DNA of 64,000 bases from an uncultured virus (IMG/VR IMGVR_UViG_3300035696_001394). Its lineage: Duplodnaviria > Heunggongvirae > Uroviricota > Caudoviricetes. The position numbers and the translations under genes were made by a program. The stretch lies in IMG/VR virus record IMGVR_UViG_3300035696_001394; one strand, given 5' to 3'. This document shows, in pieces, positions 22,866-44,591 of this stretch (its first letter is position 1; each line of letters starts with the position of its first letter). The notes under the pieces were generated by a model. The model did no database searches. It was not told where the DNA came from and saw only the letters and a list, made by a program, of their open reading frames with translations.

Positions 22866-22948
22866 GACAAAAGGCCGACGACTCTTGCGCGTGACGCCGA
22901 GGGGCCAATCTTGGAGCCCCACCGCGGACGCGCCGAGAATCCTCGGCC
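22866..22948 (-). ncRNA. Conserved structured 5' leader element, copy 1
   Basis: Shares CGCGCCGAGAATCCTCGGCC, CCAATCTTGGAG, CTTGCGC and GACAAAAGG with 44459..44550; compensatory base changes. Confidence 0.65.
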
Positions 22949-22960
22949 CAGACAACCCCT

Positions 22961-22969
22961 AGCGTACCA
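22961..22969 (-). promoter_or_regulatory. Putative extended -10 promoter (TGgTACGCT)
   Basis: -10-like hexamer lies 12 nt upstream of the conserved 20-mer, the same spacing as the promoter at 44563. Confidence 0.5.
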
Positions 22970-22991
22970 CTGAACGGGCCTTTATGCCGGG

Positions 22992-23603
22992 TCATCTGCC
23001 CCTCGTAAGCAGGTAGGCGACCACCGCCCCGATGACGAGCGGGATGACCGCCCGGAGCACCTCGCGGCCCACCAACGGCAGGAGCCCCTTGATCTTGCGC
23101 CAGGTCGTCAGCTCCGCCTCTTCGCCCGTCCGGCGCACGACTTCCTGCGCGACTTCGAGCGCGATGGCGCGCGCCCGGTCGGAGTCGATCTTGTTGTGCG
23201 GGTTCTTCACGAGGTCGGTCAGGCTGCGACCCGCGCTGCTCAGGATGCGATCCCAATCGTGGATGCTCGGCTCCTCGTCGTCGTCATCGTCATCGTCGAC
23301 GGACGGGGCCGCTGGCGGCGTCGGACGCGGCGGCGTCGGAACGTGCCCCGGCGGCCGACGTCGCGGGGGCGCCTTGCCTTCGAGGATCGCGAGCCGCTCC
23401 TGCACGTCGTCGAGTTCGAGTCGGAAGCCGGCGCTCAGCGCCCGCACGTACTCGTTGACGTGGAGCATGATGTCGAGCGCGCGCACGGCGATGGCGCGGT
23501 CGCTGAAGTGCGAGACGTCCTCGCGGTTGCTTTCGGGACCCACGATCTCACTGACGGGTCGAACAGGATGACGCGGCGGGGGCGGGGGCGGCACTGCGGA
23601 CAC
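22992..23603 (-). CDS. Hypothetical protein (Pro-rich, acidic tract, C-terminal TM)
   Basis: GTG start with GAGG RBS; DDDDDDDEE; AVIPLVIGAVVAYLL. Confidence 0.6.
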   Translation of the reverse strand: MSAVPPPPPPRHPVRPVSEIVGPESNREDVSHFSDRAIAVRALDIMLHVNEYVRALSAGFRLELDDVQERLAILEGKAPPRRRPPGHVPTPPRPTPPAAPSVDDDDDDDEEPSIHDWDRILSSAGRSLTDLVKNPHNKIDSDRARAIALEVAQEVVRRTGEEAELTTWRKIKGLLPLVGREVLRAVIPLVIGAVVAYLLTRGR

Positions 23604-23663
23604 CTCACACCCCCTCGATGTGTAGCTTCGATCTAACACCGCGCGCGATGCGTGCCATGTGCA

Positions 23664-23954
23664 TCAACGTCCTGCCGGCCACGCGGCGTCGATGCCCTTC
23701 GGCGTGATGTAGTAGCGCCCCTCATGCACCGCGACATGACCGCGCCGCTCGGCGGTCGAGAGCACGCGGTCGGTGACGGCCTTGTGTGTTCCGTCCATCT
23801 GCATCCAGTGCCGCCACATCCAGCGCGTCTGCCCCGGGTTGTTGTTCATCGCGACGAGGATCGCGCGGTAGGCGTGTCGCTGCTCTTCGGGCAAGCCGTA
23901 GCGCGGCCGTGCCGCTGCGCGACCGTACCGCCTGCGCAGGGCGCCCGTGTTCAT
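23664..23954 (-). CDS. RRYG-leader small protein (possible winged-helix cargo)
   Basis: MNTGALRRRYG; ends VLSTAERRGHV..GRYYITPKG; ATGA overlap. Confidence 0.75.
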   Translation of the reverse strand: MNTGALRRRYGRAAARPRYGLPEEQRHAYRAILVAMNNNPGQTRWMWRHWMQMDGTHKAVTDRVLSTAERRGHVAVHEGRYYITPKGIDAAWPAGR

Positions 23955-24187
23955 CCCGGCCTCTTCACCACGTTGCCGACGACGCCGAGCACCTCGTGAC
24001 CGTCGCGTGCCGCGCGCGACTTGGCGTGACCGATCGCTTCGACGGGCGACGCGGCGCGCACGACGTACTCCAGTTGGTGGCGCAGGCCAGGACGCGAGGC
24101 GCTGATGACCTGAAGCTGGACCGCCCACAAGCCTTCACGTCGTGCTCGCCCGTACCGCCGCTCCAGTGCATGGACCTTCAGCTTCAT
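23951..24187 (-). CDS. RRYG-leader small protein
   Basis: MKLKVHALERRYG; ATGA overlaps. Confidence 0.75.
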   Translation of the reverse strand: MKLKVHALERRYGRARREGLWAVQLQVISASRPGLRHQLEYVVRAASPVEAIGHAKSRAARDGHEVLGVVGNVVKRPG

Positions 24188-24396
24188 GCGTCTCCCATCG
24201 CTTCCTTCAACCTCTTGAGCGCTGCGCTTCGAACCTTGGCCGGAGCCGTACGGGCCGCTCGGTACGCTGCAAGCTCGGCAGGCGCCTTGCGCTCAGCGCG
24301 AGCCCACCACTTGCGGGAGTTGGCCGACCATCGATCGACGTCAGCCTGCGCTGAGCGCGAGCGGCCGTAGCGGCGCGTGAGGGCCGACCGCGCCAC
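24184..24396 (-). CDS. RRYG-leader small basic protein
   Basis: MARSALTRRYG. Confidence 0.7.
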   Translation of the reverse strand: MARSALTRRYGRSRSAQADVDRWSANSRKWWARAERKAPAELAAYRAARTAPAKVRSAALKRLKEAMGDA

Positions 24397-24401
24397 ACCG
24401 A

Positions 24402-24806
24402 CTACCCTTCACCCCGCGGGTACTCCTCGACCATGTGCCGCTTGAAGTTCGCCAGGCCCTCGCCGACCATCTTCGAGATCGCCGTCAGCTTGGCCTTCGT
24501 CATCTTGCCGGCCGGATCCTCGACGGCGAGCCACCCACCGCTGCGCCCCGTGAAGGACACCGATCCGATCCACGGGTACTTCGCGCGCAGATCGTGCTCG
24601 AACGCCTCGCGCGCCTGCTCGACTTCCCAGGACCACTGTTCCTCGGATGCGTCCGAGGCGAGACGCATGATCTTCACGTTGAACTCGTAGACCGCGTTCG
24701 GGTCGCCGAGCGTCCAGCGCGACTCGAACCTGACCTTCGGCATCGGCGCAAAGGGGTTCATCCCCGGGTTGTATCGCTGCCGCAGTATGCGTGCGTGCGT
24801 TCGCAT
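24402..24806 (-). CDS. RRYG-leader variant protein
   Basis: MRTHARILRQRYN; cargo with FTGRSGGWL. Confidence 0.7.
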   Translation of the reverse strand: MRTHARILRQRYNPGMNPFAPMPKVRFESRWTLGDPNAVYEFNVKIMRLASDASEEQWSWEVEQAREAFEHDLRAKYPWIGSVSFTGRSGGWLAVEDPAGKMTKAKLTAISKMVGEGLANFKRHMVEEYPRGEG

Positions 24807-24811
24807 GGTGC

Positions 24812-25006
24812 TCACCCGTGCCTTTCGCGCACGATCGCGACGGCCCGCGCGTGCGGAACCTTGCGCGCGAGCGGCCTGACGTGCGTGCCCTTGTTGTCCA
24901 CGAGCACGACGTCGTAGAGCCCCCTGCCCGCGGGGACCGTGATCGCTGAGAGGCTCGGCCACGAACGGCCGTAGCGCTTGCGCAGAGCATGTCCTCGACG
25001 TCGCAT
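24812..25006 (-). CDS. RRYG-leader small protein
   Basis: MRRRGHALRKRYG. Confidence 0.75.
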   Translation of the reverse strand: MRRRGHALRKRYGRSWPSLSAITVPAGRGLYDVVLVDNKGTHVRPLARKVPHARAVAIVRERHG

Positions 25007-25007
25007 G

Positions 25008-25487
25008 TCAGACCTCTCTCTTGTGAACGCCGAAGGAGCCTCTGACCGCCTTGCCCTCGCGCCAGTCGAACACCCCGTCCATGTTGCGCCCCATCTTCAC
25101 GAGGCAGTCGGCGGCCGTGTCGCAACCGGACACGTCGAAGCCGATCCCGGTCGGCGGCATCGGCCCTGACCACACGAGCTTCGTGAGCGAGCCCTGCCAA
25201 CGGGGCTTGCCCGCGGCCGTCGTGCCGTAGTTCAGGTTCCGCGAGATCGATGCGACCTCTTTGCCCTTGTGGAAGATCGGCCACGTGTCGCTCCAGAACG
25301 TGTCGCCCTTGAAGCGCGGCTCCACGCTCTCGATGCGCCCGAGGGTGAAGACCCGGCCGCCGGGCGACTTGAAGCTCTTGGGCGGAGCGTCACCCTTGGC
25401 GATCTTGCCGTGCTTCTTGTAGACGGTCTCGTCCCAAGTCGCCGCCTTGCCGTACCTGCGCCGAAGCGCGCTGCCTCTACCTCGCAT
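25008..25487 (-). CDS. RRYG-leader protein
   Basis: MRGRGSALRRRYG; GGAG RBS. Confidence 0.8.
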   Translation of the reverse strand: MRGRGSALRRRYGKAATWDETVYKKHGKIAKGDAPPKSFKSPGGRVFTLGRIESVEPRFKGDTFWSDTWPIFHKGKEVASISRNLNYGTTAAGKPRWQGSLTKLVWSGPMPPTGIGFDVSGCDTAADCLVKMGRNMDGVFDWREGKAVRGSFGVHKREV

Positions 25488-25496
25488 GGGCGCTCC

Positions 25497-25862
25497 TCAG
25501 ATCCACTCGTAGCCGAGGTTCGCCATGATCGACGACCCGAGGCTCATCGCTTCGTCGTCGCTCGACTGACCGAGCTTCTTGATCAGCGAGTAGAGCTGCT
25601 TCTCCGTCAGCTCGTAGCGGTTCTTGCCGTACTGACCGACGCCGGACGGCTCGACGCGCATCTTGCGCAGGATGCGGCCGTCCTCGCTGTTGGCGTGCGC
25701 CTCGATCGCGAACGTCTGCCCGGCGGCGAGGTACGGACGATCCTCATCCGGGGCGTTCGAGCGGATGTGCGCGAGGAACTCCTTGTACGCCGGCACCACG
25801 CCGAAGGTCATCGACTTCGCGTGTCCGTAGCGCCTTGCGAGCGCGTGTCCATGTCGTCGCAT
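25497..25862 (-). CDS. RRYG-leader protein
   Basis: MRRHGHALARRYG; ends LGYEWI. Confidence 0.8.
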   Translation of the reverse strand: MRRHGHALARRYGHAKSMTFGVVPAYKEFLAHIRSNAPDEDRPYLAAGQTFAIEAHANSEDGRILRKMRVEPSGVGQYGKNRYELTEKQLYSLIKKLGQSSDDEAMSLGSSIMANLGYEWI

Positions 25863-25864
25863 CG

Positions 25865-26419
25865 TCAGGTTCCTCCCGGCGTCATCAGTTCGAGCGCGCA
25901 CTGCCGCGCATCGTGGCCCATCGGCCGAACGGCGCGCTCCGAGAGCGCGACACGACACACCCGCGCCAGATCCGTATCGCCTGTCTCGACCGCTTTGCCG
26001 AGCAAGCGCTCGACACGCGGCCAGAACTCGGGCGAGCGCATGAGCGCCTCGACCTTCGCGTCGCGGTCGCTCCACGCCTTCATGATGCCGTGCGGCTCGG
26101 GGCCTGCTTTCGCCGCGTACTTCCGCGCTGCGACGACGGCCGACGCGGGACGCTCGAACGGGAAGGCGCCCGACGACTCGTGATGGCCGTCCTTGCCGAT
26201 CCACGCGTGCAGGCCGCCGCCCTCGGCTGCCGGCGACACGCGCAAGCTCCACCCGCCGGGCCGGCGACTGTCGTGGAAGCGCGGGTTGATCGAGTAGGTG
26301 CGGCCCTCGAAAACGAGCGAGTAGCTACCGCCCGCAATCGTGCTCCACGCGTCGAGACCTGGGAGCTTCCCCGCTCGCGCGTGACCGCTGTACCGCCGCC
26401 TGAGTGCTCGTTGCCTCAT
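25865..26419 (-). CDS. RRYG-leader variant protein
   Basis: MRQRALRRRYSG. Confidence 0.75.
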   Translation of the reverse strand: MRQRALRRRYSGHARAGKLPGLDAWSTIAGGSYSLVFEGRTYSINPRFHDSRRPGGWSLRVSPAAEGGGLHAWIGKDGHHESSGAFPFERPASAVVAARKYAAKAGPEPHGIMKAWSDRDAKVEALMRSPEFWPRVERLLGKAVETGDTDLARVCRVALSERAVRPMGHDARQCALELMTPGGT

Positions 26420-26456
26420 CGATCCGCCGTCCTCTCGTCGTGCGCGCCCGCGCACG

Positions 26457-26774
26457 CTACCGGTAGTGCCCCCTGCGCGAGTGCGCGAACTCCGCGACCT
26501 CGACAGGCGACGGCCCGAGCACCGCGCCCAGCTCCTCGGAACGGAGCCCGACCGGCGCCATCTCCTCGTACATCGGCGCGTGCGCGCCCTCGTAGAGCGC
26601 GAGCTGCGCGGGCACCTCGGCCTCGCCGATCTCGGCCTGCGCTTCCGCGACAGCCTCGGCGACCGTCTCGGGCTCGACGAAGAGCTGCCCGTGAACCTTC
26701 ATCGGGATCGCGCTGCGACCGTACCGGCGTGCGAGCCGGCGCGCGTGACCCTTCTTCTTTCCTCGCTTCGGCAT
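26457..26774 (-). CDS. RRYG-leader protein (acidic cargo)
   Basis: MPKRGKKKGHARRLARRYG; AAGGAG RBS. Confidence 0.75.
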   Translation of the reverse strand: MPKRGKKKGHARRLARRYGRSAIPMKVHGQLFVEPETVAEAVAEAQAEIGEAEVPAQLALYEGAHAPMYEEMAPVGLRSEELGAVLGPSPVEVAEFAHSRRGHYR

Positions 26775-26789
26775 GACGATCTCCTTCGA

Positions 26790-27470
26790 CTAGAAGCTGA
26801 ACCCGCCGCCCCCGCCACCGCCGGGCAACCCGCTCGTGATGGCGCTGCCCACCGCTTGCGCCGCGCTCTGCGCTGCCCCCTGCGCAGCGCCCTGCACCGC
26901 GCCTTGCACCGCGCCTACCCCGGGCACGTTCACGCTCGGCGCGCTGACGTTCACGTTCATGCCCAACAGACCGCCGCCACCCCCGCTCGGCTTCGGCGGT
27001 CCGATGAGCGTGACGGGATCAGGCGGGATGGGATCGTGCGTGTAGAACGTCAGCGCTGCCGACGTGCGCTTGTCGTAGGTCCCCGTGGGCAGTTGCGGCC
27101 CGAGCGCGCTCACGAGGTTCGCATCGAGCATGGCGTGACGCTGAAACGCGCCGATGAGCGCGAGTCCCGTCGGCGTGCGGAAGGCGATCATCCCCAGGGG
27201 ATTGCCTTTGAGGAAGTTGTGCAGATCGGATGCTTCCTTCGGGATCTGAATCGAAGCCGCCGCCGACGCCTGCGCGAGCTGACTCGGCGTCACGCCGGGC
27301 GCAGGCACCATGACGCGCATCGCTGCGGCCGGCGGCGCCTTGTGCTTGGGGCGTCGCAACCAGTCGACGAGGCCCCCGGCCGCCGCGCCGATGGGCGCTC
27401 CGATCGGGCCGCCGACGAAGAACCCCGTCGCCGCACCCGCAACCGTCGCAGTGAGCTTGGGCCACTTCAT
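26790..27470 (-). CDS. Glycine-zipper protein with peptidoglycan-binding-like domain
   Basis: MKWPKLTATVAGAATGFFVGGPIG; AFQ...TGTYDKRTSAALTFYTHDP. Confidence 0.7.
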   Translation of the reverse strand: MKWPKLTATVAGAATGFFVGGPIGAPIGAAAGGLVDWLRRPKHKAPPAAAMRVMVPAPGVTPSQLAQASAAASIQIPKEASDLHNFLKGNPLGMIAFRTPTGLALIGAFQRHAMLDANLVSALGPQLPTGTYDKRTSAALTFYTHDPIPPDPVTLIGPPKPSGGGGGLLGMNVNVSAPSVNVPGVGAVQGAVQGAAQGAAQSAAQAVGSAITSGLPGGGGGGGFSF

Positions 27471-27472
27471 GA

Positions 27473-27763
27473 TCAGCACTTCTCCCATCCGACGCGCGCC
27501 TGAACGCCGCGTCCACCGAGGTACACCGTACGAGTCCGCTCGAAGTGCGACGGGTCTTCCTGCCGCAGATGGATGAACTCCATCCCCGTGTCGAAGTCCA
27601 CGTCGTCGACCTTCCAGTCGTGACGCTCCGCCCACTCCTTGGCCGTCTCCAGCGTGAAGCGTGAGATCGGGAAGAGGAGCGTCTGCACACGCGAGCCCGT
27701 CGGGCAAAGCTTCTGCCCGCGATGTTCGTGGCCGTACCTGCGACGAAGGGCTCGATGCGCCAT
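27473..27763 (-). CDS. RRYG-leader protein
   Basis: MAHRALRRRYG; cargo VQTLLF...AKEWAERHDWK...LRQEDP. Confidence 0.8.
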   Translation of the reverse strand: MAHRALRRRYGHEHRGQKLCPTGSRVQTLLFPISRFTLETAKEWAERHDWKVDDVDFDTGMEFIHLRQEDPSHFERTRTVYLGGRGVQARVGWEKC

Positions 27764-27765
27764 GG

Positions 27766-28068
27766 CTACTCCGTGATGCCCGTCCCGACCTTGTGAGCGG
27801 CACGCACGATCCGACCGTGCGCCTCGCTGTACTCGGCCGCAGTGACGTGCCTCATGTTGCGCATCATCGACAGACGCGCTGCCGCCGCGTGGATGTGCTT
27901 CGCGTCGAGCTTGCCGCTCTTGTTGGTGAGGAGCAGACCGCCGTGACCGAGGTGCCGCTTCGACGGCAACGCGAATGCGCTGTCGGGGAGCTTCGATCGC
28001 TCCGCGTAGGTGACGTGCGTCCTGCCGTAACGGCGCCCGAGCGCCCGACCGTGCTTGTGATGCCTCAT
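27766..28068 (-). CDS. RRYG-leader protein (cargo resembles DUF6582)
   Basis: MRHHKHGRALGRRYG; AERSKLPDSAFALP...HIHAAAARL. Confidence 0.75.
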   Translation of the reverse strand: MRHHKHGRALGRRYGRTHVTYAERSKLPDSAFALPSKRHLGHGGLLLTNKSGKLDAKHIHAAAARLSMMRNMRHVTAAEYSEAHGRIVRAAHKVGTGITE

Positions 28069-28328
28069 GTCGCCCCTGTCACCCTTTCCCGATGCGCGCG
28101 CTTGAGCGCGACCCCGACCCCACCGCCGGCCATCGCGCCGATTGCCGCACCGATCGCACTGCCCGTCCCGCTGCTCGACAGAAGCGCTCCGACCGCCGCG
28201 CCCATGCCGGCCCCCACGACATCAGCGTGCTCGTGGATGTACTCCTCGGCGAACGTGATGTCGTGCGCCACCACGCTCGCGAACGAGCGGCCGTAGCGCC
28301 GAGCGAGAGCGGTGCGCTTGCGCTTCAT
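28065..28328 (-). CDS. RRYG-leader protein with glycine zipper
   Basis: MKRKRTALARRYG; GAGMGAAVG...GAAIGAMAG. Confidence 0.75.
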   Translation of the reverse strand: MKRKRTALARRYGRSFASVVAHDITFAEEYIHEHADVVGAGMGAAVGALLSSSGTGSAIGAAIGAMAGGGVGVALKRAHRERVTGAT

Positions 28329-28501
28329 GCGAGCGCCTCGGCGGCCAGATCACGGGCCGTCGTCGTGAGAACGCCACGCCCGAGCGCGGACTCCCACTCG
28401 GACATCCGTGCTCGCGCGTAGCGCCGCCTCAACGCGCGAGCACGCGCCGCCCTCTTCGCCGCGCAAGCGGGCCCGAAGTCGGGCAAGGAGCGGCGCTTCA
28501 C
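28325..28501 (-). CDS. Small basic protein with internal ALRRRYA motif
   Basis: GTG start; RARALRRRYA; ATGA overlap downstream. Confidence 0.5.
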   Translation of the reverse strand: MKRRSLPDFGPACAAKRAARARALRRRYARARMSEWESALGRGVLTTTARDLAAEALA

Positions 28502-28508
28502 GAGCGTC

Positions 28509-28742
28509 CTACTTCCCGCTCGTGACCTTCTCGATCGCCATGGCCGCGACGGCACCGACGGCCATCGCCGGCACGGCGCCGAGTTCCGCGATGACGAGGC
28601 CAGCCCCGGCGCCGACGACGCCAGCCGTCACCAAGGGGTACTCCTTGGCGAGCTTCTGGACTTCGGTGGTCGCCTTGTGGATGGGCTCCATCATCGACGC
28701 GTGACCGTAGCGTCGTGCCAGTGCGGTACGACGGCGACGCAT
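28509..28742 (-). CDS. RRYG-leader protein with hydrophobic/glycine-zipper C-terminus
   Basis: MRRRRTALARRYG; AGVVGAGAGLVI. Confidence 0.75.
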   Translation of the reverse strand: MRRRRTALARRYGHASMMEPIHKATTEVQKLAKEYPLVTAGVVGAGAGLVIAELGAVPAMAVGAVAAMAIEKVTSGK

Positions 28743-28903
28743 CACGCGTTCTTTCGCGCCGAGGACCAGACCTCGCCGTTCTTCTTCACGTAGTAGATCC
28801 GCTTCGCGTCGCGCTTGACCTTCACGCCCTCGGAGCGCTTGCCGGCATGCCCGTAGCGCTTGCGGAGCCCACGCGACCGACCGAACAGCTTGGGAAACTT
28901 CAT
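28742..28903 (-). CDS. RRYG-leader micro-protein (53 aa, absent from ORF track)
   Basis: Hand translation MKFPKLFGRSRGLRKRYGHAGKRSEGVKVKRDAKRIYYVKKNGEVWSSARKNA; TGATG overlap. Confidence 0.7.
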   Translation of the reverse strand: MKFPKLFGRSRGLRKRYGHAGKRSEGVKVKRDAKRIYYVKKNGEVWSSARKNA

Positions 28904-28932
28904 GGACCGTACCCGTACCCTTTCCGTTGTTG

Positions 28933-29166
28933 TCAGGTGAGATCGTTTTCGTCGATCTCACCCACGTTGTTCTTGCGCCACTCTGCCACGCCCTCACGTG
29001 TTGCTGCGATCTTCTTGCGTTGCTTCTCGACCGCCTTCTCCGCGTCGCTCGTGATCGACTCGATCGCCTTGGCGCCTGCACGCACGACCGATTCGACAGT
29101 CCCGACGAGGAAGTCCGCCGCCATCTTCGCGAAAAACGATTGTCGCTGTTGCTGTTCGTCGGCCAT
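28933..29166 (-). CDS. Small helical hypothetical protein
   Basis: MADEQQQRQSFFAKM...; fills gap. Confidence 0.65.
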   Translation of the reverse strand: MADEQQQRQSFFAKMAADFLVGTVESVVRAGAKAIESITSDAEKAVEKQRKKIAATREGVAEWRKNNVGEIDENDLT

Positions 29167-29181
29167 CTTGTGCCGCCTTCC

Positions 29182-30207
29182 TTACTTCTTGAGCTGCCCC
29201 GCCTTGGGGATGCACCCCAGATCGTCGGCGTCGGTGAAGAGCCCACCGGAGACGGGGACGACGAAGCCGCCGCCACCGCCCCAGCCGCCACGACCACCCC
29301 CACCACCCCCACGCGGCGGCCCGCCGAAGGTGTGCCCGTCGTGCCCCATCTCGCGGGCTTCCGCGTCGTCGTAGAAGTCGATCCGGGAGGTCTCGGTCAT
29401 CGTCCCCAGCGCGTGGACGCCGTGGATGCCGTCGCCGCTGCCGTCGCCGCCCATGCGCGACAGGCGCGGACCCCAATCGCCCTCGCCTGCGATGAGCGGC
29501 GCGTTGGGGAAGTCGGCCCTGTCGCCGCCGTCCTCGTCCAAGAACTGCGACGCCGCGAAGCCGCCGCCACCCAGGTGCATCACGCGATCGATGCCCCTGA
29601 ACCTGTTGACCGGGATCGGCATGCCCGAGAGCGTCTTCGGATCGTCGTCTTCCTCGCCGTGGAAGACCGAACCGATCTTGTGGAACAGCTTGGCGAAGAA
29701 CCCTTCCTTCTTCGGTTCGGGCGCGGGGGCCGGCTTCATCGGCGCGATGAGCCTGATCTGCGGTTCGTCGCCGAAGGGGCTGCGCATCCACCGCGGCTTG
29801 TGGAGCGACCTGGGCTGCCGCATCCAGAGCGGCAGATCGAAGCCCATCTCGTCGCCGTCGCAGCCCGTGTCGTCGCCCGCGTCATCGAGGCCGCTGCTCA
29901 ACTCGAAGCCGATGTCGCCGTGCGGCTGGTGCGTCATGACGACCGAGCCGTCGGGCATGTGCTTGATGTCCAGCTCACCGCTGAACTGGACGGTCGACAT
30001 CCAATTCTGGAAGTCGCCCATCGACGAGATGTTGCGCTCGGCGGTGTTCGGGTCGGGCGGGCGGCCGGGGGCGTACGTGTCGCCGCCCTTCTGACGCGCG
30101 AGCGCGGTCATCTGCGGGCCGTTCGCGTTCCAGAAGTTCTCGTCCACGGCCCCGATCGAACGGATCACGCCGTCCGCATCCAAGAGATCGACTTCGGTCA
30201 CACCCAT
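29182..30207 (-). CDS. Acidic, Gly/Asp-rich low-complexity protein
   Basis: 341 aa; many x-F/M-G-D/E motifs; RGG-rich end. Confidence 0.7.
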   Translation of the reverse strand: MGVTEVDLLDADGVIRSIGAVDENFWNANGPQMTALARQKGGDTYAPGRPPDPNTAERNISSMGDFQNWMSTVQFSGELDIKHMPDGSVVMTHQPHGDIGFELSSGLDDAGDDTGCDGDEMGFDLPLWMRQPRSLHKPRWMRSPFGDEPQIRLIAPMKPAPAPEPKKEGFFAKLFHKIGSVFHGEEDDDPKTLSGMPIPVNRFRGIDRVMHLGGGGFAASQFLDEDGGDRADFPNAPLIAGEGDWGPRLSRMGGDGSGDGIHGVHALGTMTETSRIDFYDDAEAREMGHDGHTFGGPPRGGGGGGRGGWGGGGGFVVPVSGGLFTDADDLGCIPKAGQLKK

Positions 30208-30223
30208 GATCCCACCACTCCTC

Positions 30224-30646: not shown

Positions 30647-30658
30647 GATGCTCTCCTC

Positions 30659-31150: not shown

Positions 31151-31206
31151 GACTCACCTCTTTCCATTGCAGCCGACATGATACCTCATCCTCTCCTCGG
31201 GGGCCC

Positions 31207-31515: not shown

Positions 31516-31537
31516 GTGGATCAAACCTTTCTCACGC

Positions 31538-32588: not shown

Positions 32589-32590
32589 CT

Positions 32591-34203: not shown

Positions 34204-34214
34204 CTTCGTTGCTC

Positions 34215-35358: not shown

Positions 35359-35364
35359 CTCGCC

Positions 35365-36131: not shown

Positions 36132-36141
36132 CTCTTCCTCT

Positions 36142-37054: not shown

Positions 37055-37057
37055 GGA

Positions 37058-37399: not shown

Positions 37400-37421
37400 G
37401 ACGTTGATCCCTTTCCCATCT

Positions 37422-37706
37422 TCAGGGGGCCATCCTGCCGCCCCTGCGAGTGACGTCCACTTCACCGAAGAAGCGCGACGCGATGTTGGGGCGCCAGCGC
37501 GACGGAACGACACCGACGGGATCCATGCCGTCGTCGATGTCGAGCACGATGTCGATGTCGTCGTAGACAGGCATCGCGAACCCCTGCCACGGCCAGAGGC
37601 TCCCCCTGTAGCGCGGCCCCCCGGGGTAGTACGGGTGACCGCCGGCATAGGGCAGGCCCATGCGCCCGCCCCCACCACCACTACCGCCGCTACCTCCCAT
37701 GTGCAT
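37422..37706 (-). CDS. Gly-rich small protein
   Basis: [30 protein letters not shown]. Confidence 0.5.
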   Translation of the reverse strand: MHMGGSGGSGGGGGRMGLPYAGGHPYYPGGPRYRGSLWPWQGFAMPVYDDIDIVLDIDDGMDPVGVVPSRWRPNIASRFFGEVDVTRRGGRMAP

Positions 37707-37815
37707 CAGGCAATCTCCTTTCGATGGATGTCCACGCACACCTTGACCGTTCGCACGTTGGGGCGTGCGTCGGTCACGATGACGTGCGAGATGCCGGAGA
37801 GCACGGGAGCGCGCC

Positions 37816-38154
37816 CTACTTCTTCTTGTGGAAGAGCCCCGTGATCTTGTCGTAGACCTTGCCGATGGGGCCGCCCGCGATCTGGTAGCGCTCCGTGAGG
37901 AACCCGATGCCGGCGCCGATGGCAGCGCCGGGAGGGCCACCGACCGCGAGGCCGATGAGCGCGCCCGTGCCGGTGCCCGTCATCACCTTGGGGCTCGTGA
38001 CGGCGAGCTTGACGGAGTGGGTCGCGTGCGGGTCGGTCGCGACCACCGCGTCGGCCTTGGCCTTCTCGGTGGCCTTGTCCTCGGCCTGAGCGGCGAGGGC
38101 AGCGGGGGGAGTCGCCGGAGCGGCGGGGGCAGCGGGAGCGTTGGGGTCAGCCAT
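37816..38154 (-). CDS. Glycine-zipper membrane protein
   Basis: GTGTGALIGLAVGGPPGAAIGAGIG. Confidence 0.75.
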   Translation of the reverse strand: MADPNAPAAPAAPATPPAALAAQAEDKATEKAKADAVVATDPHATHSVKLAVTSPKVMTGTGTGALIGLAVGGPPGAAIGAGIGFLTERYQIAGGPIGKVYDKITGLFHKKK

Positions 38155-38215
38155 GGGAGAACCTGTTTCCTTTCACTACGCCGCCTGGGCGGCAACCGAG
38201 AGCACGATTCCGTTA

Positions 38216-39022
38216 CTACGCAGCCGCCGCGATGGCGGCCTTCGCTGCCGCAGTGGGCAACGAGATGATCGACCAAACCTGCCAGAGCACCATGCCGCCG
38301 ACAGCGAGACCGCCCGTGATGATGAGCGCCTTGCGATGGTCGTAGAACCACTTGAGCGCGCTGAGCATCGAGCCCGGCGGCGGGGGCGCGAGCTGTCCGG
38401 TGATCTTGGCCACGACGTCGAGCGGCTGCGTCGTCTGGAGCACTTGCAGATCGACGTCTTGCGCCACCGGCTGGATCGTCGGCGCCGACTGCATGGCGGT
38501 CGACTGACCTGCCGACGACTGCGCCGCCGAGACGCGCTGGAGCAGCTCGTCGTAGTCGCCCTTCGATGTCGGGCAACCGTCCGGCGGGTAGCACTGCCGG
38601 ATCGCCTTCATGATGTTGTCGAAGGCGTTTTGCGCCGGGATCATCGACGCGGGCAGCGGGTTCCACGAGCTGTCGGAGATGGCCGCCTTGGCGTCACTCG
38701 ACGCCTTGCCGTAACGCGCGGTGAGCGCGCCCATGTCCCTGTCGAAGTCGGCCCACGCGTTCGGGTCGGACGCCTGCCACTGCCCCGAGAACGCGTTGAC
38801 GGACGCGTTGAGCGCCGCCATGCGGGCGTCCCAATTCGCGAGCAAGTCCTTCACCTCGGCGATGGTCTGCTGCCCGTTCACCGTCCCGAAGTCGTCCTCG
38901 ACGTCGTGCCGCACGACGATCGGCTCGAAGTCGGCCTCGACGTCGCCGTCCGTCAAGATGCGCGCGCGCTGACGAGCGCGCGTGCGCGCGTCGAGCTGCG
39001 CGATCATCCGCTCGCCGAGCAT
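38216..39022 (-). CDS. Helical protein with C-terminal TM
   Basis: MLGERMIAQL...; ALIITGGLAVGGMVLW. Confidence 0.65.
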   Translation of the reverse strand: MLGERMIAQLDARTRARQRARILTDGDVEADFEPIVVRHDVEDDFGTVNGQQTIAEVKDLLANWDARMAALNASVNAFSGQWQASDPNAWADFDRDMGALTARYGKASSDAKAAISDSSWNPLPASMIPAQNAFDNIMKAIRQCYPPDGCPTSKGDYDELLQRVSAAQSSAGQSTAMQSAPTIQPVAQDVDLQVLQTTQPLDVVAKITGQLAPPPPGSMLSALKWFYDHRKALIITGGLAVGGMVLWQVWSIISLPTAAAKAAIAAAA

Positions 39023-39024
39023 GC

Positions 39025-39519
39025 TCAAGACGTCACCTGCTTTCGGAACAGGAAACCGATGCCCGCGCCGACCGCACCGACGACGAGCGCCGGCACGAGG
39101 CCGCCTGCCACGAGCCCCAGCGCGAGCCCGAGACCGCCCGTGACGAGAGGCAAGCTCGGGACACCCGTGGGCATCCTGATCGCCGGACCGACCGTCGCCG
39201 TCGAGTTCGGGATCGCCGCGATGGCCGCTCGATACTGCGCGAGCATCTGCCCGATGAGCGTCTTGGCCTGCGCGGCGTCGGTCGCGCCGGCCGTCGGACC
39301 GTTGTTGACCTGCGCGAGCGTGCCGTTGAGCACCCACGCCGCATGTGTCTGCGGCATGCTCGCGCCGTTCGAGGCCGCGTCGATCGACGGGCCCACGACC
39401 GTCGCGCCCGTGTTGCCGGCCCGCTGGTACGCGGAGACGGCCGCACCATAGGCGTTCGCGGTGAGCGACTTGTCGCCCGCCGTGATGTCAGCGTTGAACG
39501 CGGCAACATCGATCGTCAT
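39025..39519 (-). CDS. Ala-rich protein with C-terminal glycine-zipper TM
   Basis: GGLGLALGLVAGG..GAVGAGIG. Confidence 0.7.
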   Translation of the reverse strand: MTIDVAAFNADITAGDKSLTANAYGAAVSAYQRAGNTGATVVGPSIDAASNGASMPQTHAAWVLNGTLAQVNNGPTAGATDAAQAKTLIGQMLAQYRAAIAAIPNSTATVGPAIRMPTGVPSLPLVTGGLGLALGLVAGGLVPALVVGAVGAGIGFLFRKQVTS

Positions 39520-39530
39520 GACAGCCTCGA

Positions 39531-39641
39531 TTACCGCTTGCTCTTGCGGTGCCCGTGACCGTGCTTCTTGTGCCGCGCCATGCCGAAGCGCTTGCGGAGT
39601 GCCGCCGGGAGAAGCTTCTTGAGGGAGTCCTTGATCGCCAT
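39531..39641 (-). CDS. 36-aa basic His/Lys-rich peptide with ALRKRFG leader variant (absent from ORF track)
   Basis: Hand translation MAIKDSLKKLLPAALRKRFGMARHKKHGHGHRKSKR; GAGG RBS. Confidence 0.7.
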   Translation of the reverse strand: MAIKDSLKKLLPAALRKRFGMARHKKHGHGHRKSKR

Positions 39642-39685
39642 GATGAGACCTCTGTCACCTTTCTACGCCGAAACGTGGGGTTGAG

Positions 39686-40087
39686 CTAGGGCCGCAGGCT
39701 GTTGGGCCAGCGGGGGTAATACACCGGGACCGGATCGAAGTCGCATTCGAGAACGTCGTGCGCGTTCATCAGGAGTCGATGATTCGCGCTGTTGAGCGTC
39801 ACGAGTGCGAGATGCCCGCGCTCCGGGACACGCACCCCCGCGGCGCGAGCGAAGTCGGGTGTGAGCGAAGTGAGCGCTTGGCGCAGCTCCGGGATGTTGA
39901 AGCCGGGACCAAGCACCCATCCGAGCAAGTGGAGCGCGAGCTGCGCGTCGGACGGCCAGAACGCGAACGAGGGATACTTCTTCCGAAAGACACCCTCGTT
40001 CGCGTCGAGCCGACACGCCGCGCTTGCGTCGCCCGAGAGGACGGTCGCGAGCCCGACGAAGGCACGCTCGACGCTCTCGCGCGCCAC
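39686..40087 (-). CDS. Truncated lysozyme-like paralog lacking the catalytic N-lobe
   Basis: KYPSFAFWPSDAQLALHLLGWVLGPGF aligns with KYPDYVNWPADAQMALHSIAWAWGPGF of 21440..22558. Confidence 0.6.
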   Translation of the reverse strand: MARESVERAFVGLATVLSGDASAACRLDANEGVFRKKYPSFAFWPSDAQLALHLLGWVLGPGFNIPELRQALTSLTPDFARAAGVRVPERGHLALVTLNSANHRLLMNAHDVLECDFDPVPVYYPRWPNSLRP

Positions 40088-40090
40088 TTG

Positions 40091-40183
40091 CTACCGCCGC
40101 TTGCCCTTGTGATGCGCACGGCCCTTCTTGGGCTTCTTGTGGGCCATGCCGACGCGGGGCTTCTTGTGCTTCTTGTGACGCAT
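40091..40183 (-). CDS. 30-aa protamine-like basic peptide (absent from ORF track)
   Basis: Hand translation MRHKKHKKPRVGMAHKKPKKGRAHHKGKRR; AAGGAG RBS. Confidence 0.7.
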   Translation of the reverse strand: MRHKKHKKPRVGMAHKKPKKGRAHHKGKRR

Positions 40184-40209
40184 GTTCTCCTTGACCTTTC
40201 TTTGACGGA

Positions 40210-40863
40210 CTATCCGTCGATTCCGAACACGACCGTGACGCTGGCATCAGCCGCACCAGCATTCGAGACACCGATACCGAGAGCACCCGCAAGGAGTGGA
40301 ACGTAGATGCCGGGCGTGATGGACGTCGACATCAGCGTCACGATCTCGGCCGGCGGGTAGAGCGCTTGTTGCACGAGCACGATGTCGGCGGGGCCCGTCG
40401 TCGTCGACGAGAAGACCGCGACGGAGTTCGCGCCCTCGGGGATGTCCACGAGCGCCGGCAGGGAAGTACCGGCCGGAAGAAGCGTGCTACGCAGCGCCGT
40501 GAAGACGGGGTACGCCGCGGTACGAGGACGCGTGCGCGCTGCGACGTTGGCGGTGACGCCATACTTGAAGCCCGGCGGGAACGGCGCCGCCGTACCGTCC
40601 TTGACGAGAATGCGGCACGCCTCGGCGAGACCGGAGATGGACGCGCCCGCGCACACGTCGATCGTGCGGCTCTGCGTGATGCCGTTGACCGTCCACTCCA
40701 CGGTCATGTACGCGAAGCACGAGACGCCATCCTCGATGTCCTGATCGACCTCGGCCTGCGCCGTGAACATCGTCGGTTCTTCGAACTCGGCGCTCAAGCT
40801 AATGAACGTGGCCGTACGGCCCGTGATCAGCCTGTCGCTTCGGCCCCATCCAGTGCGTTTCAT
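40210..40863 (-). CDS. Beta-rich putative virion structural protein (possible jelly-roll/penton-like)
   Basis: 217 aa with alternating beta-strand pattern; ATGA overlap. Confidence 0.5.
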   Translation of the reverse strand: MKRTGWGRSDRLITGRTATFISLSAEFEEPTMFTAQAEVDQDIEDGVSCFAYMTVEWTVNGITQSRTIDVCAGASISGLAEACRILVKDGTAAPFPPGFKYGVTANVAARTRPRTAAYPVFTALRSTLLPAGTSLPALVDIPEGANSVAVFSSTTTGPADIVLVQQALYPPAEIVTLMSTSITPGIYVPLLAGALGIGVSNAGAADASVTVVFGIDG

Positions 40864-41531
40864 TCGCCCAGCTCCCATCCCGCCACGGGGGCGTAGCGAC
40901 TGATCGAGCTGCCGGGGTGTCGCGCCATCTGAAGCTGGCGCGCGCGGCCGACGCATTGCCCGACGACGAGCGCGCGACGTAGCTGCGGATCGAGACGGGG
41001 CGCCAGCTCTTGCCAGTCCTTCTCGCCGCAGAACTTCACGCCGTGCAGGAAGCACGCAGCGTGCGCCTTGGACTCGTCGTCCTCGCCGCCGAACATGCTC
41101 TCACCGATTCCCTTGATCGCTTCGATGGTGAGCGGGTCGCTGGTCGCGAGCACGACGGCCGCCGCTGCGAGCCCGTGACGGAACTTGCACGCGCGCAGGA
41201 TGCAGACCTCGAAGCGCTCGGGATCGAAGATGCCGTCGAGAAGACCGGGGGGCAGTGCGGGTTTCTTCATCTCGGGATCGGGCCGTGTTGAGAACTTGGA
41301 GACCGTGATGCCGTTGTCAGCGCCGAAGAAGCTTTGCGCCGCCGACTTGACCGGATGCCCGTCGATGTACTTCTTGATCATCGCGTACGCGGCGCGTGCG
41401 CGCGCACCACCCTTGCGCGCCGCCATACCCACTTGCTGGATCAACGCCATCGCGTTCTGGTCCCCCGCGCGTGCGCGCCGGACCAGGGCGGCTGACTGAT
41501 CGGCCAGCGAGAGGGCAGAGGCGGCGGCCAT
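40860..41531 (-). CDS. Helical hypothetical protein
   Basis: MAAASAL..VRRARAGDQNAMALI; FFG and MFG motifs. Confidence 0.65.
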   Translation of the reverse strand: MAAASALSLADQSAALVRRARAGDQNAMALIQQVGMAARKGGARARAAYAMIKKYIDGHPVKSAAQSFFGADNGITVSKFSTRPDPEMKKPALPPGLLDGIFDPERFEVCILRACKFRHGLAAAAVVLATSDPLTIEAIKGIGESMFGGEDDESKAHAACFLHGVKFCGEKDWQELAPRLDPQLRRALVVGQCVGRARQLQMARHPGSSISRYAPVAGWELGE

Positions 41532-41533
41532 GA

Positions 41534-42511
41534 TCAGGTCTGCGCGGCCTCTTCGTTGACGGCGTTCTGATCCGCGAGCGCGGCCTGCACGGACGCGGCG
41601 GCGGTCGCGGGCGCAGCCGGCGGGGGCTGCACGGGTTCCGGGGGGTTCTCCACTTCGGCCGGCACCGCCACGGCGCGCGGAGCGGCGGGGGGCGGAGCTG
41701 CCGCCCCGGCAGCCGGCGGGATCGCATCCTCGTCTTCTTCCACCGGGGGCACACCGCTCGCGGGCGCGCCGCCCGTGGGGGCAGCGGCGGCAGCGGCAGC
41801 GGCCGGCGGTGCCGTACCGGCGCCCGCGTTCGGATCGACTTCGAGTTCGGCCTGCGCGATCGAGATCGCGTCGGCGACGTTGGTGTCGTCCGGCGTCAAG
41901 CCGCGCGCGTTGATGAAGTTCGAAGCCGCCGCCTTGGCCTCGTTGCTCGTCGGACCGAAGTGCATGATCGCCTTCGCGAGCTTGTCGGCGAAGGCGTGCA
42001 GCACATTCGGGTCGACCGGCTTGGCGCTCTTGCCCGCCGAGTGCGCGGCTCGCACCGCCGCCGCGTGCGCGCGCAGCGAAGCCGCCGCGTCGATCGCGCC
42101 CTGCTCCTCGAACGCCGCCGCCACCTCGTCGATCCCTTCGGGGATGTCGCTCGTGAGCGCACGACGGTACGCGTCGCGCCGGGCCACCTTGGTCGCCTCG
42201 GGCAGCTCGCGCAGCCCCGCGCGCTTCCTGAGCATCTCGGCCTGCCCGTGGAGCCCTTCCTTCTCGAAGACGTCGGCGAGGTCCCGCAGCTCCTTGGGGT
42301 CCTTGATCGTCGCCATCGCGTTCTCGTAGACGACCTTGCGCTTGGGCGTCATCTCGCCCGAGGGCTTCTTCGGCGACGCGTTCGCCAGCCCGCCCCCGAG
42401 AAGCGCACCGATCCCGGCCCCGACGGGGCCCCCGAGCATGAAGCCGACGAGCGCGCCGATGCCGGCGCCGACGCCCGTCCTCTTGTTGATGATCTCGTTC
42501 ACGGTTGTCAC
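41534..42511 (-). CDS. N-terminal glycine-zipper helical protein with Pro/Ala tail
   Basis: GVGAGIGALVGFMLGGPVGAGIG; two similar helical repeats (ADVFEKEG / AAAFEEQG); start uncertain. Confidence 0.7.
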   Translation of the reverse strand: MTTVNEIINKRTGVGAGIGALVGFMLGGPVGAGIGALLGGGLANASPKKPSGEMTPKRKVVYENAMATIKDPKELRDLADVFEKEGLHGQAEMLRKRAGLRELPEATKVARRDAYRRALTSDIPEGIDEVAAAFEEQGAIDAAASLRAHAAAVRAAHSAGKSAKPVDPNVLHAFADKLAKAIMHFGPTSNEAKAAASNFINARGLTPDDTNVADAISIAQAELEVDPNAGAGTAPPAAAAAAAAPTGGAPASGVPPVEEDEDAIPPAAGAAAPPPAAPRAVAVPAEVENPPEPVQPPPAAPATAAASVQAALADQNAVNEEAAQT

Positions 42512-42536
42512 GATTGCACCCCAATCCTTACAGGGT

Positions 42537-42968
42537 TCATTGTGGGAAGACCCAGAGCCCGCGCGCCGCATGGTACTCGGCCATGCCGAGCTTGCGCGAG
42601 GGATCTTCGAAGCCGCCGGGTCGCTGCACGAGAATGTGGAAGTCCTTGGCCCCTCGTTGCGGGTTGATCGCGAATCGGAAGACCGGTTTGGCGCTCTCGC
42701 CCTTGTTGCGTAGCTCCGCGACGCGCGCGGCCGTGAGTGACTTGCAGTCGCCGTAGTGGCGTTGGTAGAGATCGGGAATCGAGTCCCACACCTTCGTCCG
42801 CGCGTAGGTGACGCCCGCGGAGTACAGCGGCGGCGTCGAGGGGTAGCGCGCGAGGTAGACCCGATTGGCTGCGATCAACGCTTCGAGCATGACGCGCAGC
42901 ACGAGCGCGTTGTCCTCGTCGGACGCGCCCGCATGAAACACGAAGCCGAGATCGAAACAGATCCGCAT
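42537..42968 (-). CDS. Transglutaminase-like cysteine protease (candidate maturation protease)
   Basis: YGDCKSL..ARVAEL, FHILV, EDPS give an ordered Cys-His-Asp triad. Confidence 0.65.
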   Translation of the reverse strand: MRICFDLGFVFHAGASDEDNALVLRVMLEALIAANRVYLARYPSTPPLYSAGVTYARTKVWDSIPDLYQRHYGDCKSLTAARVAELRNKGESAKPVFRFAINPQRGAKDFHILVQRPGGFEDPSRKLGMAEYHAARGLWVFPQ

Positions 42969-42986
42969 GGGCTCCTGTCGGCAGAG

Positions 42987-43093
42987 AGCACTCCGATAGG
43001 GGCAGGAGAGGTTGCCGTCGCTCCGCTCGACCGCCGCTCAGCATAGGCGCCAGCGGTTGGGGTGCAGGAGCGACTTCTCGCTACCGGAGTGCT
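42987..43093 (-). other. Nested inverted repeats (structured intergenic RNA)
   Basis: AGCACTCCG/CGGAGTGCT enclosing GTCGCTCC/GGAGCGAC and CCGCT/AGCGG. Confidence 0.5.
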
Positions 43094-43114
43094 TCAGCCT
43101 TCAGCTCAGGGCGA

Positions 43115-43864
43115 TCAGGCCGAGAGCGTCGCCGGGCCCGTGAACGACACGACGAACTGGAAGCTTCCCGTCCCGCTGAGGGGCGAGGGCACCAGGCCGG
43201 TGTAGTTCGCGTTGACCGTGGCCTTGTTCGCAGGCGTCAGGGTCGGCACGCTCAGGGCGCGGCCGACGCCGTTCGCGTTGAACTGCCAGGCGTCCAGGGT
43301 TCCGCCGACCGTGAACGAGACGTTCGCGACGCGACCGTCCGTGATCAGGATCATGCCGGGGGACACGACGTTGATCGTGACCTGCTCGGGGCGGAAGTTG
43401 ACGTCCGGGGCGCCCGACGCCGTGAGGGCCTGGCTCGTTCCGAGCGCGAGGATCACGTCGTTGACCGAGAACGTGTAGCGCTCGATCTTCAGCTCCGAGT
43501 GCATGTTCGGCTCCAGAAGGAGCGCGCGCTGCGACCGGTGCTTGTTGCGCTTCATGTGCATCGCGATGATGCGCTGCGCCGCCGGGTTCGGGTGATGCAG
43601 GGGGTGGTGCGGGTGCGCCACGTGCATCGGGTGAACCGGCGCCGCCGCGGGGGCGGGGTCGGTCCCGAAGATGGACGAGAGCCCCATGGCATCCTCGCCG
43701 TCCATCTCGTCCCAATCGGCGCCGAAGATCGACTCGACGCCGAAGTCCGCCTCGCCGCCGAGGGAGAAGTTCTCCTCGGTGCCGAAGTCGGCCATCCCGT
43801 TCACGCCCATCAGGGCCGCGAGCGCCGGGTCACGCATCGCGAGGTCGTGTGCCTTCTTTCCCAT
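43115..43864 (-). CDS. Candidate major capsid protein precursor (acidic propeptide plus single-jelly-roll-like domain)
   Basis: Very strong codon bias; acidic N-part with DFG/IFG repeats, His/Pro linker, ~125-aa all-beta C-domain (NFRPEQVTI, ITDGRVAN, FQFVVSFTG). Confidence 0.5.
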   Translation of the reverse strand: MGKKAHDLAMRDPALAALMGVNGMADFGTEENFSLGGEADFGVESIFGADWDEMDGEDAMGLSSIFGTDPAPAAAPVHPMHVAHPHHPLHHPNPAAQRIIAMHMKRNKHRSQRALLLEPNMHSELKIERYTFSVNDVILALGTSQALTASGAPDVNFRPEQVTINVVSPGMILITDGRVANVSFTVGGTLDAWQFNANGVGRALSVPTLTPANKATVNANYTGLVPSPLSGTGSFQFVVSFTGPATLSA

Positions 43865-43935
43865 GACTTTTTCTCTCTCCTTGTACGACCGCTCCGGCGT
43901 GATGCCGGCGCGGAAGACTCTGTTGGTCGCCCGAT

Positions 43936-44439
43936 TCAGCCGAGACCTCTGGCTGCCTTGAGGATCGGGTCTTCCTCGTCGTCGTCTTCCCCTGCGATCT
44001 TCGACTTGCCGGCTCCGGGCTTCGGGGCGATGCCCGCCGTACCCTTCTGACGACGGATGAGCGTCTCGGCGCCGCGATCCGAGAGGATGGCTGCCGCCGC
44101 CGCGCCCACCTGCCGCATGTCCTGCGCAGCCTCGGGGAAGTGCCCTGCCGCTGCGACCGACGCCACGGCGCCGAGCCCCGCGACGGCCGCTGCCGCCGCG
44201 TTCGCAGGACCATCACCGAACATGGCGCGCGTGGTTCCGAGCAACGCGCCCGTCACCGCGCTCTCGCCGTAGGTTCGGAGCACGCTGCCGCCCGCCTTCA
44301 TGTACGGCGCAGCCGAAGCCGGCGTGGTGGGCTTGATCTCGCCCTTCGCACGCTCGACGAACTTCTTGACCCACGACGCGTGACCCGGCTTCTCGGTCAC
44401 GGATGTCGTCGTGGTGATCGCCTTGTTCTCGTCAGCCAT
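43936..44439 (-). CDS. Ala-rich membrane-associated hypothetical protein
   Basis: First gene after leader element; hydrophobic Ala helices; acidic tail. Confidence 0.65.
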   Translation of the reverse strand: MADENKAITTTTSVTEKPGHASWVKKFVERAKGEIKPTTPASAAPYMKAGGSVLRTYGESAVTGALLGTTRAMFGDGPANAAAAAVAGLGAVASVAAAGHFPEAAQDMRQVGAAAAAILSDRGAETLIRRQKGTAGIAPKPGAGKSKIAGEDDDEEDPILKAARGLG

Positions 44440-44458
44440 CTTCGAGTGCTCTCCGCCG

Positions 44459-44550
44459 GACAAAAGGCAAAAGCCGAGGAACCCTTGCGCGGTTGCGATG
44501 GGGACCAATCTTGGAGTCCGCCGCCGCCCTCGCGCCGAGAATCCTCGGCC
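44459..44550 (-). ncRNA. Conserved structured 5' leader element, copy 2
   Basis: Homologous to 22866..22948; long stem followed by U-tracts on the minus strand. Confidence 0.65.
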
Positions 44551-44562
44551 TACTGACGCTAG

Positions 44563-44591
44563 AGGTTACGCTGCCATACGTGACCCGTCAA
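44563..44591 (-). promoter_or_regulatory. Sigma70-type promoter TTGACG-N17-TAACCT
   Basis: -35 at 44591..44586, 17-nt spacer, -10 at 44568..44563, in an intergenic gap. Confidence 0.65.

Follow-up and report, generated by a model that had tools for sequence, protein, structure and literature searches.

The stretch analysed here (the window) comprises 64,000 nucleotides (nt) of viral DNA from an uncultured virus, recorded in IMG/VR as IMGVR_UViG_3300035696_001394. At the DNA level its sequence occurs in peat and soil metagenomes, and no RNA dataset is among those listed as containing it. All main genes of the window point the same way, being encoded on the minus strand; the genome continues past the 64 kb, and the protein family scans reported below covered the 74 window proteins. 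Two copies of a short structured leader element occupy true non-coding gaps of 154 and 174 nt, copy 1 heading lysis-like and collagen-fibre genes and copy 2 heading a capsid-like operon (Table 1). A preliminary description of the sequence had placed these elements at the head of two runs of late genes of about 21-22 kb each. Late-type genes (capsid-like, protease, lysis-like and fibre genes) do lie downstream and the elements stand where they were described, but the two runs are not independent units: with all main genes on the minus strand, it is the elements themselves that mark the runs off. The element is a real leader RNA, covarying and not listed before, from a group of uncultured viruses, and its features suggest that it is most likely a gated terminator of late operons.

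Table 1. Coordinates of the two leader elements, their promoters and associated genes in the window
Feature	Position	Strand	Remarks
Extended -10 promoter of copy 1	22961..22969	-	TG-n-TACGCT; no recognisable -35; start predicted near 22954
Copy 1 rod	22873..22948	-	76 nt, 28 bp
Invariant 5' motif GAGGAUU, copy 1	22938..22944	-	5' arm of closing helix; within local 5' hairpin in nascent fold
Invariant apical motif AAGAUUG, copy 1	22906..22912	-	
U-rich tail, copy 1	22863..22872	-	UUUUGUCGUU, 7/10 U
First gene behind copy 1	22562..22837	-	91-aa hydrophobic protein, no family match; taken by us to be holin-like
Two peptidoglycan-binding-domain proteins	21440-22558, 20207-21439	-	after 91-aa gene
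Four collagen-repeat fibre proteins	2305-15225	-	further behind copy 1
Sigma70-type promoter of copy 2	44563..44591	-	TTGACG-17-TAACCT; start predicted near 44556
Copy 2 rod	44472..44550	-	79 nt, 28 bp
Invariant 5' motif GAGGAUU, copy 2	44540..44546	-	
Invariant apical motif AAGAUUG, copy 2	44506..44512	-	
U-rich tail, copy 2	44463..44472	-	UUUUGCCUUU, 7/10 U, then one more U
First gene behind copy 2	43936..44439	-	167 aa, Gly/Ala-rich, probably membrane protein
Single-jelly-roll major-capsid-like protein	43115..43864	-	249 aa; acidic N-terminal half of low confidence
Second, different conserved RNA rod	42988..43092	-	behind capsid-like gene, same operon, single window copy
Transglutaminase-like cysteine protease	42537..42968	-	143 aa; invariant Cys, His, Asp

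The two copies have in common an identical 20-mer (at 22929 and 44531), the 12-mer CCAATCTTGGAG (at 22905 and 44505), CTTGCGC and GACAAAAGG, as had been claimed, and each element begins exactly 12 nt past its -10 box (TACGCT at 22966-22961, with TG upstream, for copy 1; TAACCT at 44568-44563, with TTGACG 17 nt upstream, for copy 2). Copy 1 matches copy 2 at an nhmmer E-value of 1.6e-6, and its sole other non-self match in the window, at E 0.38, is to the opposite strand of copy 2. The structured RNA that the preliminary description saw next to each promoter is borne out by folding, which gives strong rods with energies of -52.4 kcal/mol for copy 1 and -46.9 kcal/mol for copy 2 and z-scores of -5.55 (none of 200 shuffles as good) and -3.42 (one of 200); in copy 1 the minimum-energy fold has a frequency of 0.75. 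The rod starts 5-7 nt past the predicted start site, the U-tract directly adjoins it, and the first genes begin 30-55 nt further on, with their ribosome-binding sites outside the rod.

Homologues of the element were sought in a metagenome scan made with the capsid alignment (the best 80 of 88 confirmed loci), in which locus L008 proved to be the same virus. With a profile built from both copies, two further sequences came to light, L011:238-324 (E 0.0035) and L015:1591-1678 (E 0.038). Both immediately precede the orthologue of the 167-aa gene and both form the same rod, with long, nearly perfect stems and z-scores of -5.17 and -4.38. Iteration of the profile and a covariance model (R1, searched against 88 sources) found no further members; all matches of this model below E 0.1 were to the sequences it was trained on, to the identical L008 or to the reverse strands of these. 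Weak nhmmer matches in L012 and L078 were rejected as lying within coding sequence, for L078 by its reading frame. Across the four sequences, both partners change in 7 of 21 consensus pairs, a figure reached by none of 500 shuffles and compared with 0-2 in slid controls, so that the covariation first noted between the two copies holds and extends to the homologues. The coding strand folds better than its complement in all four, by 3.4-17.2 kcal/mol, an asymmetry that points to a role at the RNA level. A variant of copy 2 was recovered as well: in one of four runs compared at that site, a soil DNA run, a contig across copy 2 differs at 53 of 907 letters, the differences listed, which reach up to the rod, including one inserted base at its 5' edge.

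Three features are invariant in the four sequences: GAGGAUU in the 5' arm, the apical AAGAUUG 31-35 nt later, and the U-tract at the base. The strand that pairs with GAGGAUU varies, with G-U swaps, one G-G mismatch and an unpaired A, and the retention of GAGGAUU while its partner changes or mispairs points to a role of this motif when unpaired. Counted from 7 nt past the -10 box, GAGGAUU starts at +11, +11, +13 and +11. Neither a start codon at a conserved spacing behind GAGGA nor a conserved open reading frame (ORF) occurs in the four leaders, and a leader-peptide attenuator was accordingly rejected.

The promoters were assessed with a matrix trained on 28 promoters of relatives, this virus excluded. 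By this matrix the -10 box of copy 1 has the top score (12.5 bits) among all -10-only positions of the minus strand, and the full promoter of copy 2 ranks third on that strand (12.9 bits). TACGCT also serves as the -10 box in L034, L056 and L067, and a permissive pattern of the sigma70 type, TTG(A/C)(C/A)N-16/18-TANNNT, precedes the same gene in 28 of 38 distinct relatives with upstream DNA, with a 17-nt spacer in 19. A scanner for the Escherichia coli-type consensus called neither promoter. The top-ranked promoter of the window is TTGACC-17-CACTCT at 57340-57368 on the minus strand, within a 57-nt gap ahead of other structural-looking genes.

The base of the rod resembles an intrinsic terminator. 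A GC-rich helix lies directly before a U-rich tract in all four sequences (6-9 U in ten), with 9/10 U in L015, 6/10 in L011 and 7/10 in both window copies, in agreement with the terminator-like tail proposed earlier. The coding strand of the window has 13 U-rich candidate sites, of which the two rod tails are the richest, the other 11 having at most 5/10 U, and these tails are the only ones behind a very stable hairpin; the rods therefore look like the sole intrinsic terminators in 64 kb. The terminator arms are about 60 nt apart, and a simple scanner made no call at copy 1, while its call at copy 2 was for an alternative short stem only.

The preliminary description had also proposed that the 5' segment folds into a local hairpin as an alternative to the rod. 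This hairpin is strong in both window copies, at -11.1 kcal/mol (p ~0.02 against random GC-rich segments and 0.03-0.08 against shuffles), and in equilibrium folding of the growing transcript it dominates until 6-9 nt before the U-tract, after which the full rod is more stable by 11-18 kcal/mol. In L011 and L015 it yields 13-15 nt before the tract and is at chance level, so that the conserved feature is the sequence of the 5' arm rather than the hairpin. The wider proposal of an attenuator or antiterminator switch for late genes is supported in part: the structured leader, the terminator-like tail and the late genes stand, the alternative 5' hairpin is weakened, and the likeness to the HK022 put and lambda nut sites is unlikely.

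The interpretation favoured here, tentatively and at somewhat less than an even chance, is that the element may be a cis-acting leader terminator (attenuator) ahead of two late operons. From its sequence, fold, covariation and position we infer transcription, termination, regulation and a binding factor as follows. Host RNA polymerase would start constitutively at the sigma70-type promoter and would halt at the rod plus U-tract, freeing an RNA of about 90 nt, as at lambda pR'-tR'. Read-through would require that the 5' arm GAGGAUU be kept off the 3' arm, most likely by a viral or host RNA-binding dimer that grips two similar motifs of the nascent RNA separated by 31-35 nt, GAGGAUU and the apical AAGAUU; the local 5' hairpin of this virus may assist in keeping the 5' arm unpaired, and NANNAT-like pausing at both motifs could supply folding time. 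The presence of one element ahead of two different late operons suggests their co-regulation, and some means of delaying late genes would be needed by the virus because a near-consensus host promoter drives the capsid operon. A bolder form of the proposal, which we consider unlikely as it stands, is an RNA-level antitermination switch of a new class that would time late genes in non-tailed single-jelly-roll bacterial viruses, with a dimeric viral protein reading twin RGAUU motifs in the terminator arm and the apical loop; the motif might derive from the palindrome AATCCTAGGATT of smaller relatives.

Several observations weigh against a leader terminator. The evidence base consists of only four distinct sequences, two of them paralogous, from three viruses. 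A terminator with arms about 60 nt apart and four proximal U residues may be weak, and the 5' hairpin in L011 and L015 (-6.2 and -5.1 kcal/mol, p 0.10-0.26) is not above chance. No antiterminator family was recognised among the window proteins, in a genome that continues outside the window, and the third strong promoter, at 57368, has no rod. Six viruses of the GC-rich clade can be inspected in this region, and the rod occurs in this virus (twice), L011 and L015. The same promoter is followed in L012 and L019 by leaders of 25 and 32 nt without a rod, and L014 is without one in the ~260 nt examined. A tree built with IQ-TREE from capsid plus protease (33 rows) joins this virus to L011 (support 92) and places L015 among L019 and L012 (support 58-79). 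The rod is thus patchy on the tree, with more than one loss or gain, and the operon functions in its absence; as two relatives have the same promoter and no rod, the element is not essential for the capsid operon.

Comparison with characterized systems places the element near several known types of leader, and it would work most like pR'-tR' with control in the style of RAT or ANTAR leaders, yet it belongs to none of them. In lambda, pR' is described as an always-on late promoter whose transcription ends at the nearby terminator tR', yielding a short RNA (PMC7547250). The lambdoid arrangement outlined in that account (an always-on sigma70 promoter, a short leader to an intrinsic terminator, and lysis and virion genes behind it) is matched here by sequence. 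Both also have -10-like sequences in the early transcribed region. Unlike in the pR'-tR' system of 6S RNA, StxS and Q antitermination, the promoter spacers here share no motif able to be a Q-binding element, conservation resides in the RNA loop and stem motifs, and the virus is not a tailed lambdoid phage; no match to a Q family was obtained among the 74 window proteins, the genome continuing past the window. ANTAR leaders are described as carrying two similar short motifs, one overlapping the terminator stem, that suit a dimeric protein, and the twin hairpins of AmiR, NasR and EutV are in this respect similar to the two leader motifs seen here, one of which lies in the terminator stem (PMC3369936). 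The differences are that the loops here are AAGAUU and (G)GAUU, an A1/G4 hexaloop being possible in one register of L015 only, and that the first motif lies in the terminator arm with the second nested in the terminator loop; no ANTAR domain was found among the window proteins. In the BglG/LicT type, the 5' hairpin and the terminator exclude one another, as in the window copies, and LicT-RAT is reported to involve kinetic competition between the two during transcription (PMC5393181). The 5' hairpin here, unlike RAT, is not conserved, has no Rfam match and stands in a viral late-gene context, and no CAT/PRD protein was found among the window proteins. A leader of the pR'-tR', RAT or ANTAR type is a closer analogy than put or nut.

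Among the competing explanations, the most substantial, although we hold it doubtful, is a stand-alone small RNA gene of about 85-95 nt with its own U-tract, acting in trans as a protein decoy or as a virion or assembly RNA, with the downstream genes served by leaky, unregulated read-through. The full rod would dominate once made, to judge from the fold frequency of copy 1; the conserved apical loop and helix sequence would suit protein binding; the element is patchy in the clade and duplicated; and StxS, a by-product of pR', is reported to work in trans (PMC7547250). All four copies, however, stand between a promoter and a start codon 30-55 nt off and are never free-standing, and neither CAATCTT, complementary to the loop, nor AATCCTC, complementary to the 5' motif, occurs on the coding strand. 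Self-pairing of the loop is good in the window copies only (-8.2 vs -4.2 and +0.4 kcal/mol), and kissing-loop dimerisation was rejected as not conserved across the homologues. The U-tract, conserved at the stem base in all four sequences, and the ribosome-binding site, which the rod leaves uncovered, both argue against a non-terminating structure of the 5' untranslated region (a stem that stabilises the 5' end or is processed by RNase III, or an operator through which a structural protein tunes the first cistrons). This explanation is improbable, even though it would accommodate the long, nearly perfect stems of L011 and L015, the long leader hairpins without U-tracts in L024, L025, L030 and L037, and the second conserved rod behind the capsid-like gene.

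Both conserved motifs also fit the -10-like sequence NANNAT, at about +11 and at +42 to +45 in all four sequences, and a NANNAT pause element is known in putL (PMC9378689). They might accordingly be read as DNA-level sites with the RNA fold secondary, either sigma-dependent pause elements or half-sites of a viral DNA-binding protein related to the palindrome AATCCTAGGATT, half of which (AGGATT) recurs with that palindrome up to 37 times in 20.7 kb of relatives. Compensatory pairs and the G-U strand asymmetry argue instead for RNA, L011 and L015 have an imperfect 5' DNA palindrome, and a genome-wide palindrome is missing from the window, so that DNA sites seem decidedly improbable as the main function; a role in pausing could coexist with a leader terminator. 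The least credible explanation, to which hardly any weight is given, is the one suggested by the preliminary description, a put- or nut-like processive antiterminator modifying RNA polymerase across the 21-kb run. HK022 put is described as a stable V-shaped RNA of two stems, which contains a triplex and binds to the beta' zinc-binding domain (PMC9378689). The window copies, whose nascent fold comprises two adjacent stems, are loosely similar. The element shares with put a location near a promoter, a length of ~70-80 nt, a possible two-stem nascent fold and a NANNAT pause-like element. Unlike put, it has as its conserved and covarying fold a single rod that ends in U residues; the two-stem form gives way to this rod, which is 11-18 kcal/mol more stable, the first stem is not conserved, and the coding strand downstream has no other intrinsic-terminator-like site (this type only was considered) that a modified polymerase would read through.

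The element had been presented as undescribed, and database searches agree. With the Rfam 15 covariance models, no match at the gathering threshold was found in the window or in nine related loci; around the copies the best E-values were 2.2-7.8, far below gathering scores, and a likeness to the rdlD antitoxin (E 3.8) was rejected as chance. A metabolite riboswitch was also rejected, as the element is a single rod rather than a multi-stem aptamer and the genomes of the Myxococcota, a putative host phylum, gave only the weak matches described below. A search with the DNA of the element gave only a 23-nt match at E 0.9. In IMG/VR, seven loci with a 16-mer of the element had none of the rest of it, and six loci with a three-part pattern did not fold as a rod; both sets were dismissed as chance. 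Weak matches in two of 151 Myxococcota genomes, one of them a hairpin after a tRNA-like 3' end, lacked the motifs. The literature searched contained no description of the element, and five motifs searched for are absent from six supplementary files of a catalogue of viral structured RNAs, three other files of which might hold it (PMC10690425).

The gene behind copy 2 encodes a 167-aa protein with homologues in 54 of the best 80 metagenome loci, and it is followed by the 249-aa capsid-like protein, with 246 homologues. An AlphaFold2 model of the latter has a mean predicted local distance difference test score of 75 and a C-terminal half predicted as a single jelly roll. Its structural matches include chains of SPV1 and HHIV-2 (Z 6.8) and a cellular jelly-roll enzyme (Z 8.0), and Foldseek found no match in the PDB at E 0.001. 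Because the cellular enzyme outscores the viral chains and Foldseek finds none in the PDB, the structural matches reveal the fold only; the Atlas neighbours of the protein are mostly viral, and the protein is presumably capsid-like. The 143-aa cysteine protease is a candidate maturation protease. A 130-aa protein at 62807-63199 (-) matches the jelly-roll C-terminal half of the capsid-like protein in 44 loci at 24-30% identity, which identifies it by sequence as a second single-jelly-roll paralogue. About 24 small ORFs (23.6-37.1 kb and 45.1 kb, -) open with a shared basic leader M..ALxRRYG(H/R)(A/S), and L012, L016, L018 and L015 have 15, 10, 6 and 4 instances of a motif resembling it. Together with FG repeats in the N-terminus of the capsid-like protein and the cysteine protease, this leader suggests a capsid-targeting sequence that may be cut after aromatic-Gly, comparable to that of the internal proteins of phage T4.

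The virus is an uncultured single-jelly-roll bacterial virus and not a tailed lambdoid phage. No relatives of its group were found in GenBank phages, PLSDB plasmids or the searched IMG/VR set, in which four protein scans gave no confirmed relative. Among 401 Myxococcota genomes, relatives of the capsid protein occurred in one, the seed metagenome-assembled genome itself, on a 2.7-kb contig; a Myxococcota host is for this reason not established.

Other features of the group merit mention. The second rod, behind the capsid-like gene, has an apical GCGC-CUAWG-CYGC hairpin and one bulge and occurs in the window, L010, L012-L019, L021 and L032. It shows double changes in 9 of 11 consensus pairs and no Rfam match, its model (R2) finds L010 and L013, both outside the training set, and one window copy, and it might serve as a coat-protein operator or stabilise the 3' end. 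The leaders of more distant relatives are of other kinds: in addition to the long hairpins without U-tracts noted above, the capsid-operon leaders of L024, L025, L027, L030 and L037 share a hairpin with a loop near AUUCUAACC, whose reverse complement resembles a tRNA T-loop and which often lies within a long rod starting right past the promoter. In L043 (9250-9290), L044 and L058, a classical short hairpin and U-tract lie in the same gap upstream of the capsid-operon gene; in L043 and L044 these stand upstream of the predicted -10 box and not behind it.

Smaller relatives carry genome-specific perfect palindromes of 12-16 bp at apparently nearly all gene boundaries. AATCCTAGGATT occurs in L070 (37 times in 20.7 kb), L071, L083, L030, L029, L046, L053, L031 and L049; others are AGTGGTACCACT (16 times in L044; L043/L044 type), AACGCTAGCGTT (19 times in L058), TATTCCGGAATA (20 times in L087) and AACGAATTCGTT (9 times in L027). 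Such gene-boundary palindromes are absent from the window and the GC-rich clade, and the 14-mer had no match in the literature searched. They could be sites of DNA condensation or of recombination, like those of the gene cassettes of integrons, and may be more surprising than the leader element. Elsewhere in the window, the gaps 39520-39685 and 40088-40209 (-) hold short unannotated, very Lys/Arg/His-rich ORFs, which may condense DNA in the manner of protamines. Genes for glycosyltransferases and methyltransferases form a cluster (57611-61573 and 831-1925, -) that probably serves to glycosylate virion fibres; one gene has a 39-residue Pfam match to a TcdA/TcdB-type glycosyltransferase stretch beneath a stronger Gly_transf_sug match. 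A 1918-aa protein (45436-51192, -) has many internal repeats and no Pfam or PHROG match.

As a short, covarying and twice-used leader with two invariant motifs, the element is a candidate that can be tested directly. Should it be a free RNA, it would add a new small RNA of viral origin; should it be a protein-controlled terminator, an unrelated lineage of viruses would share lambda-style late control by means of a new RNA-protein pair.

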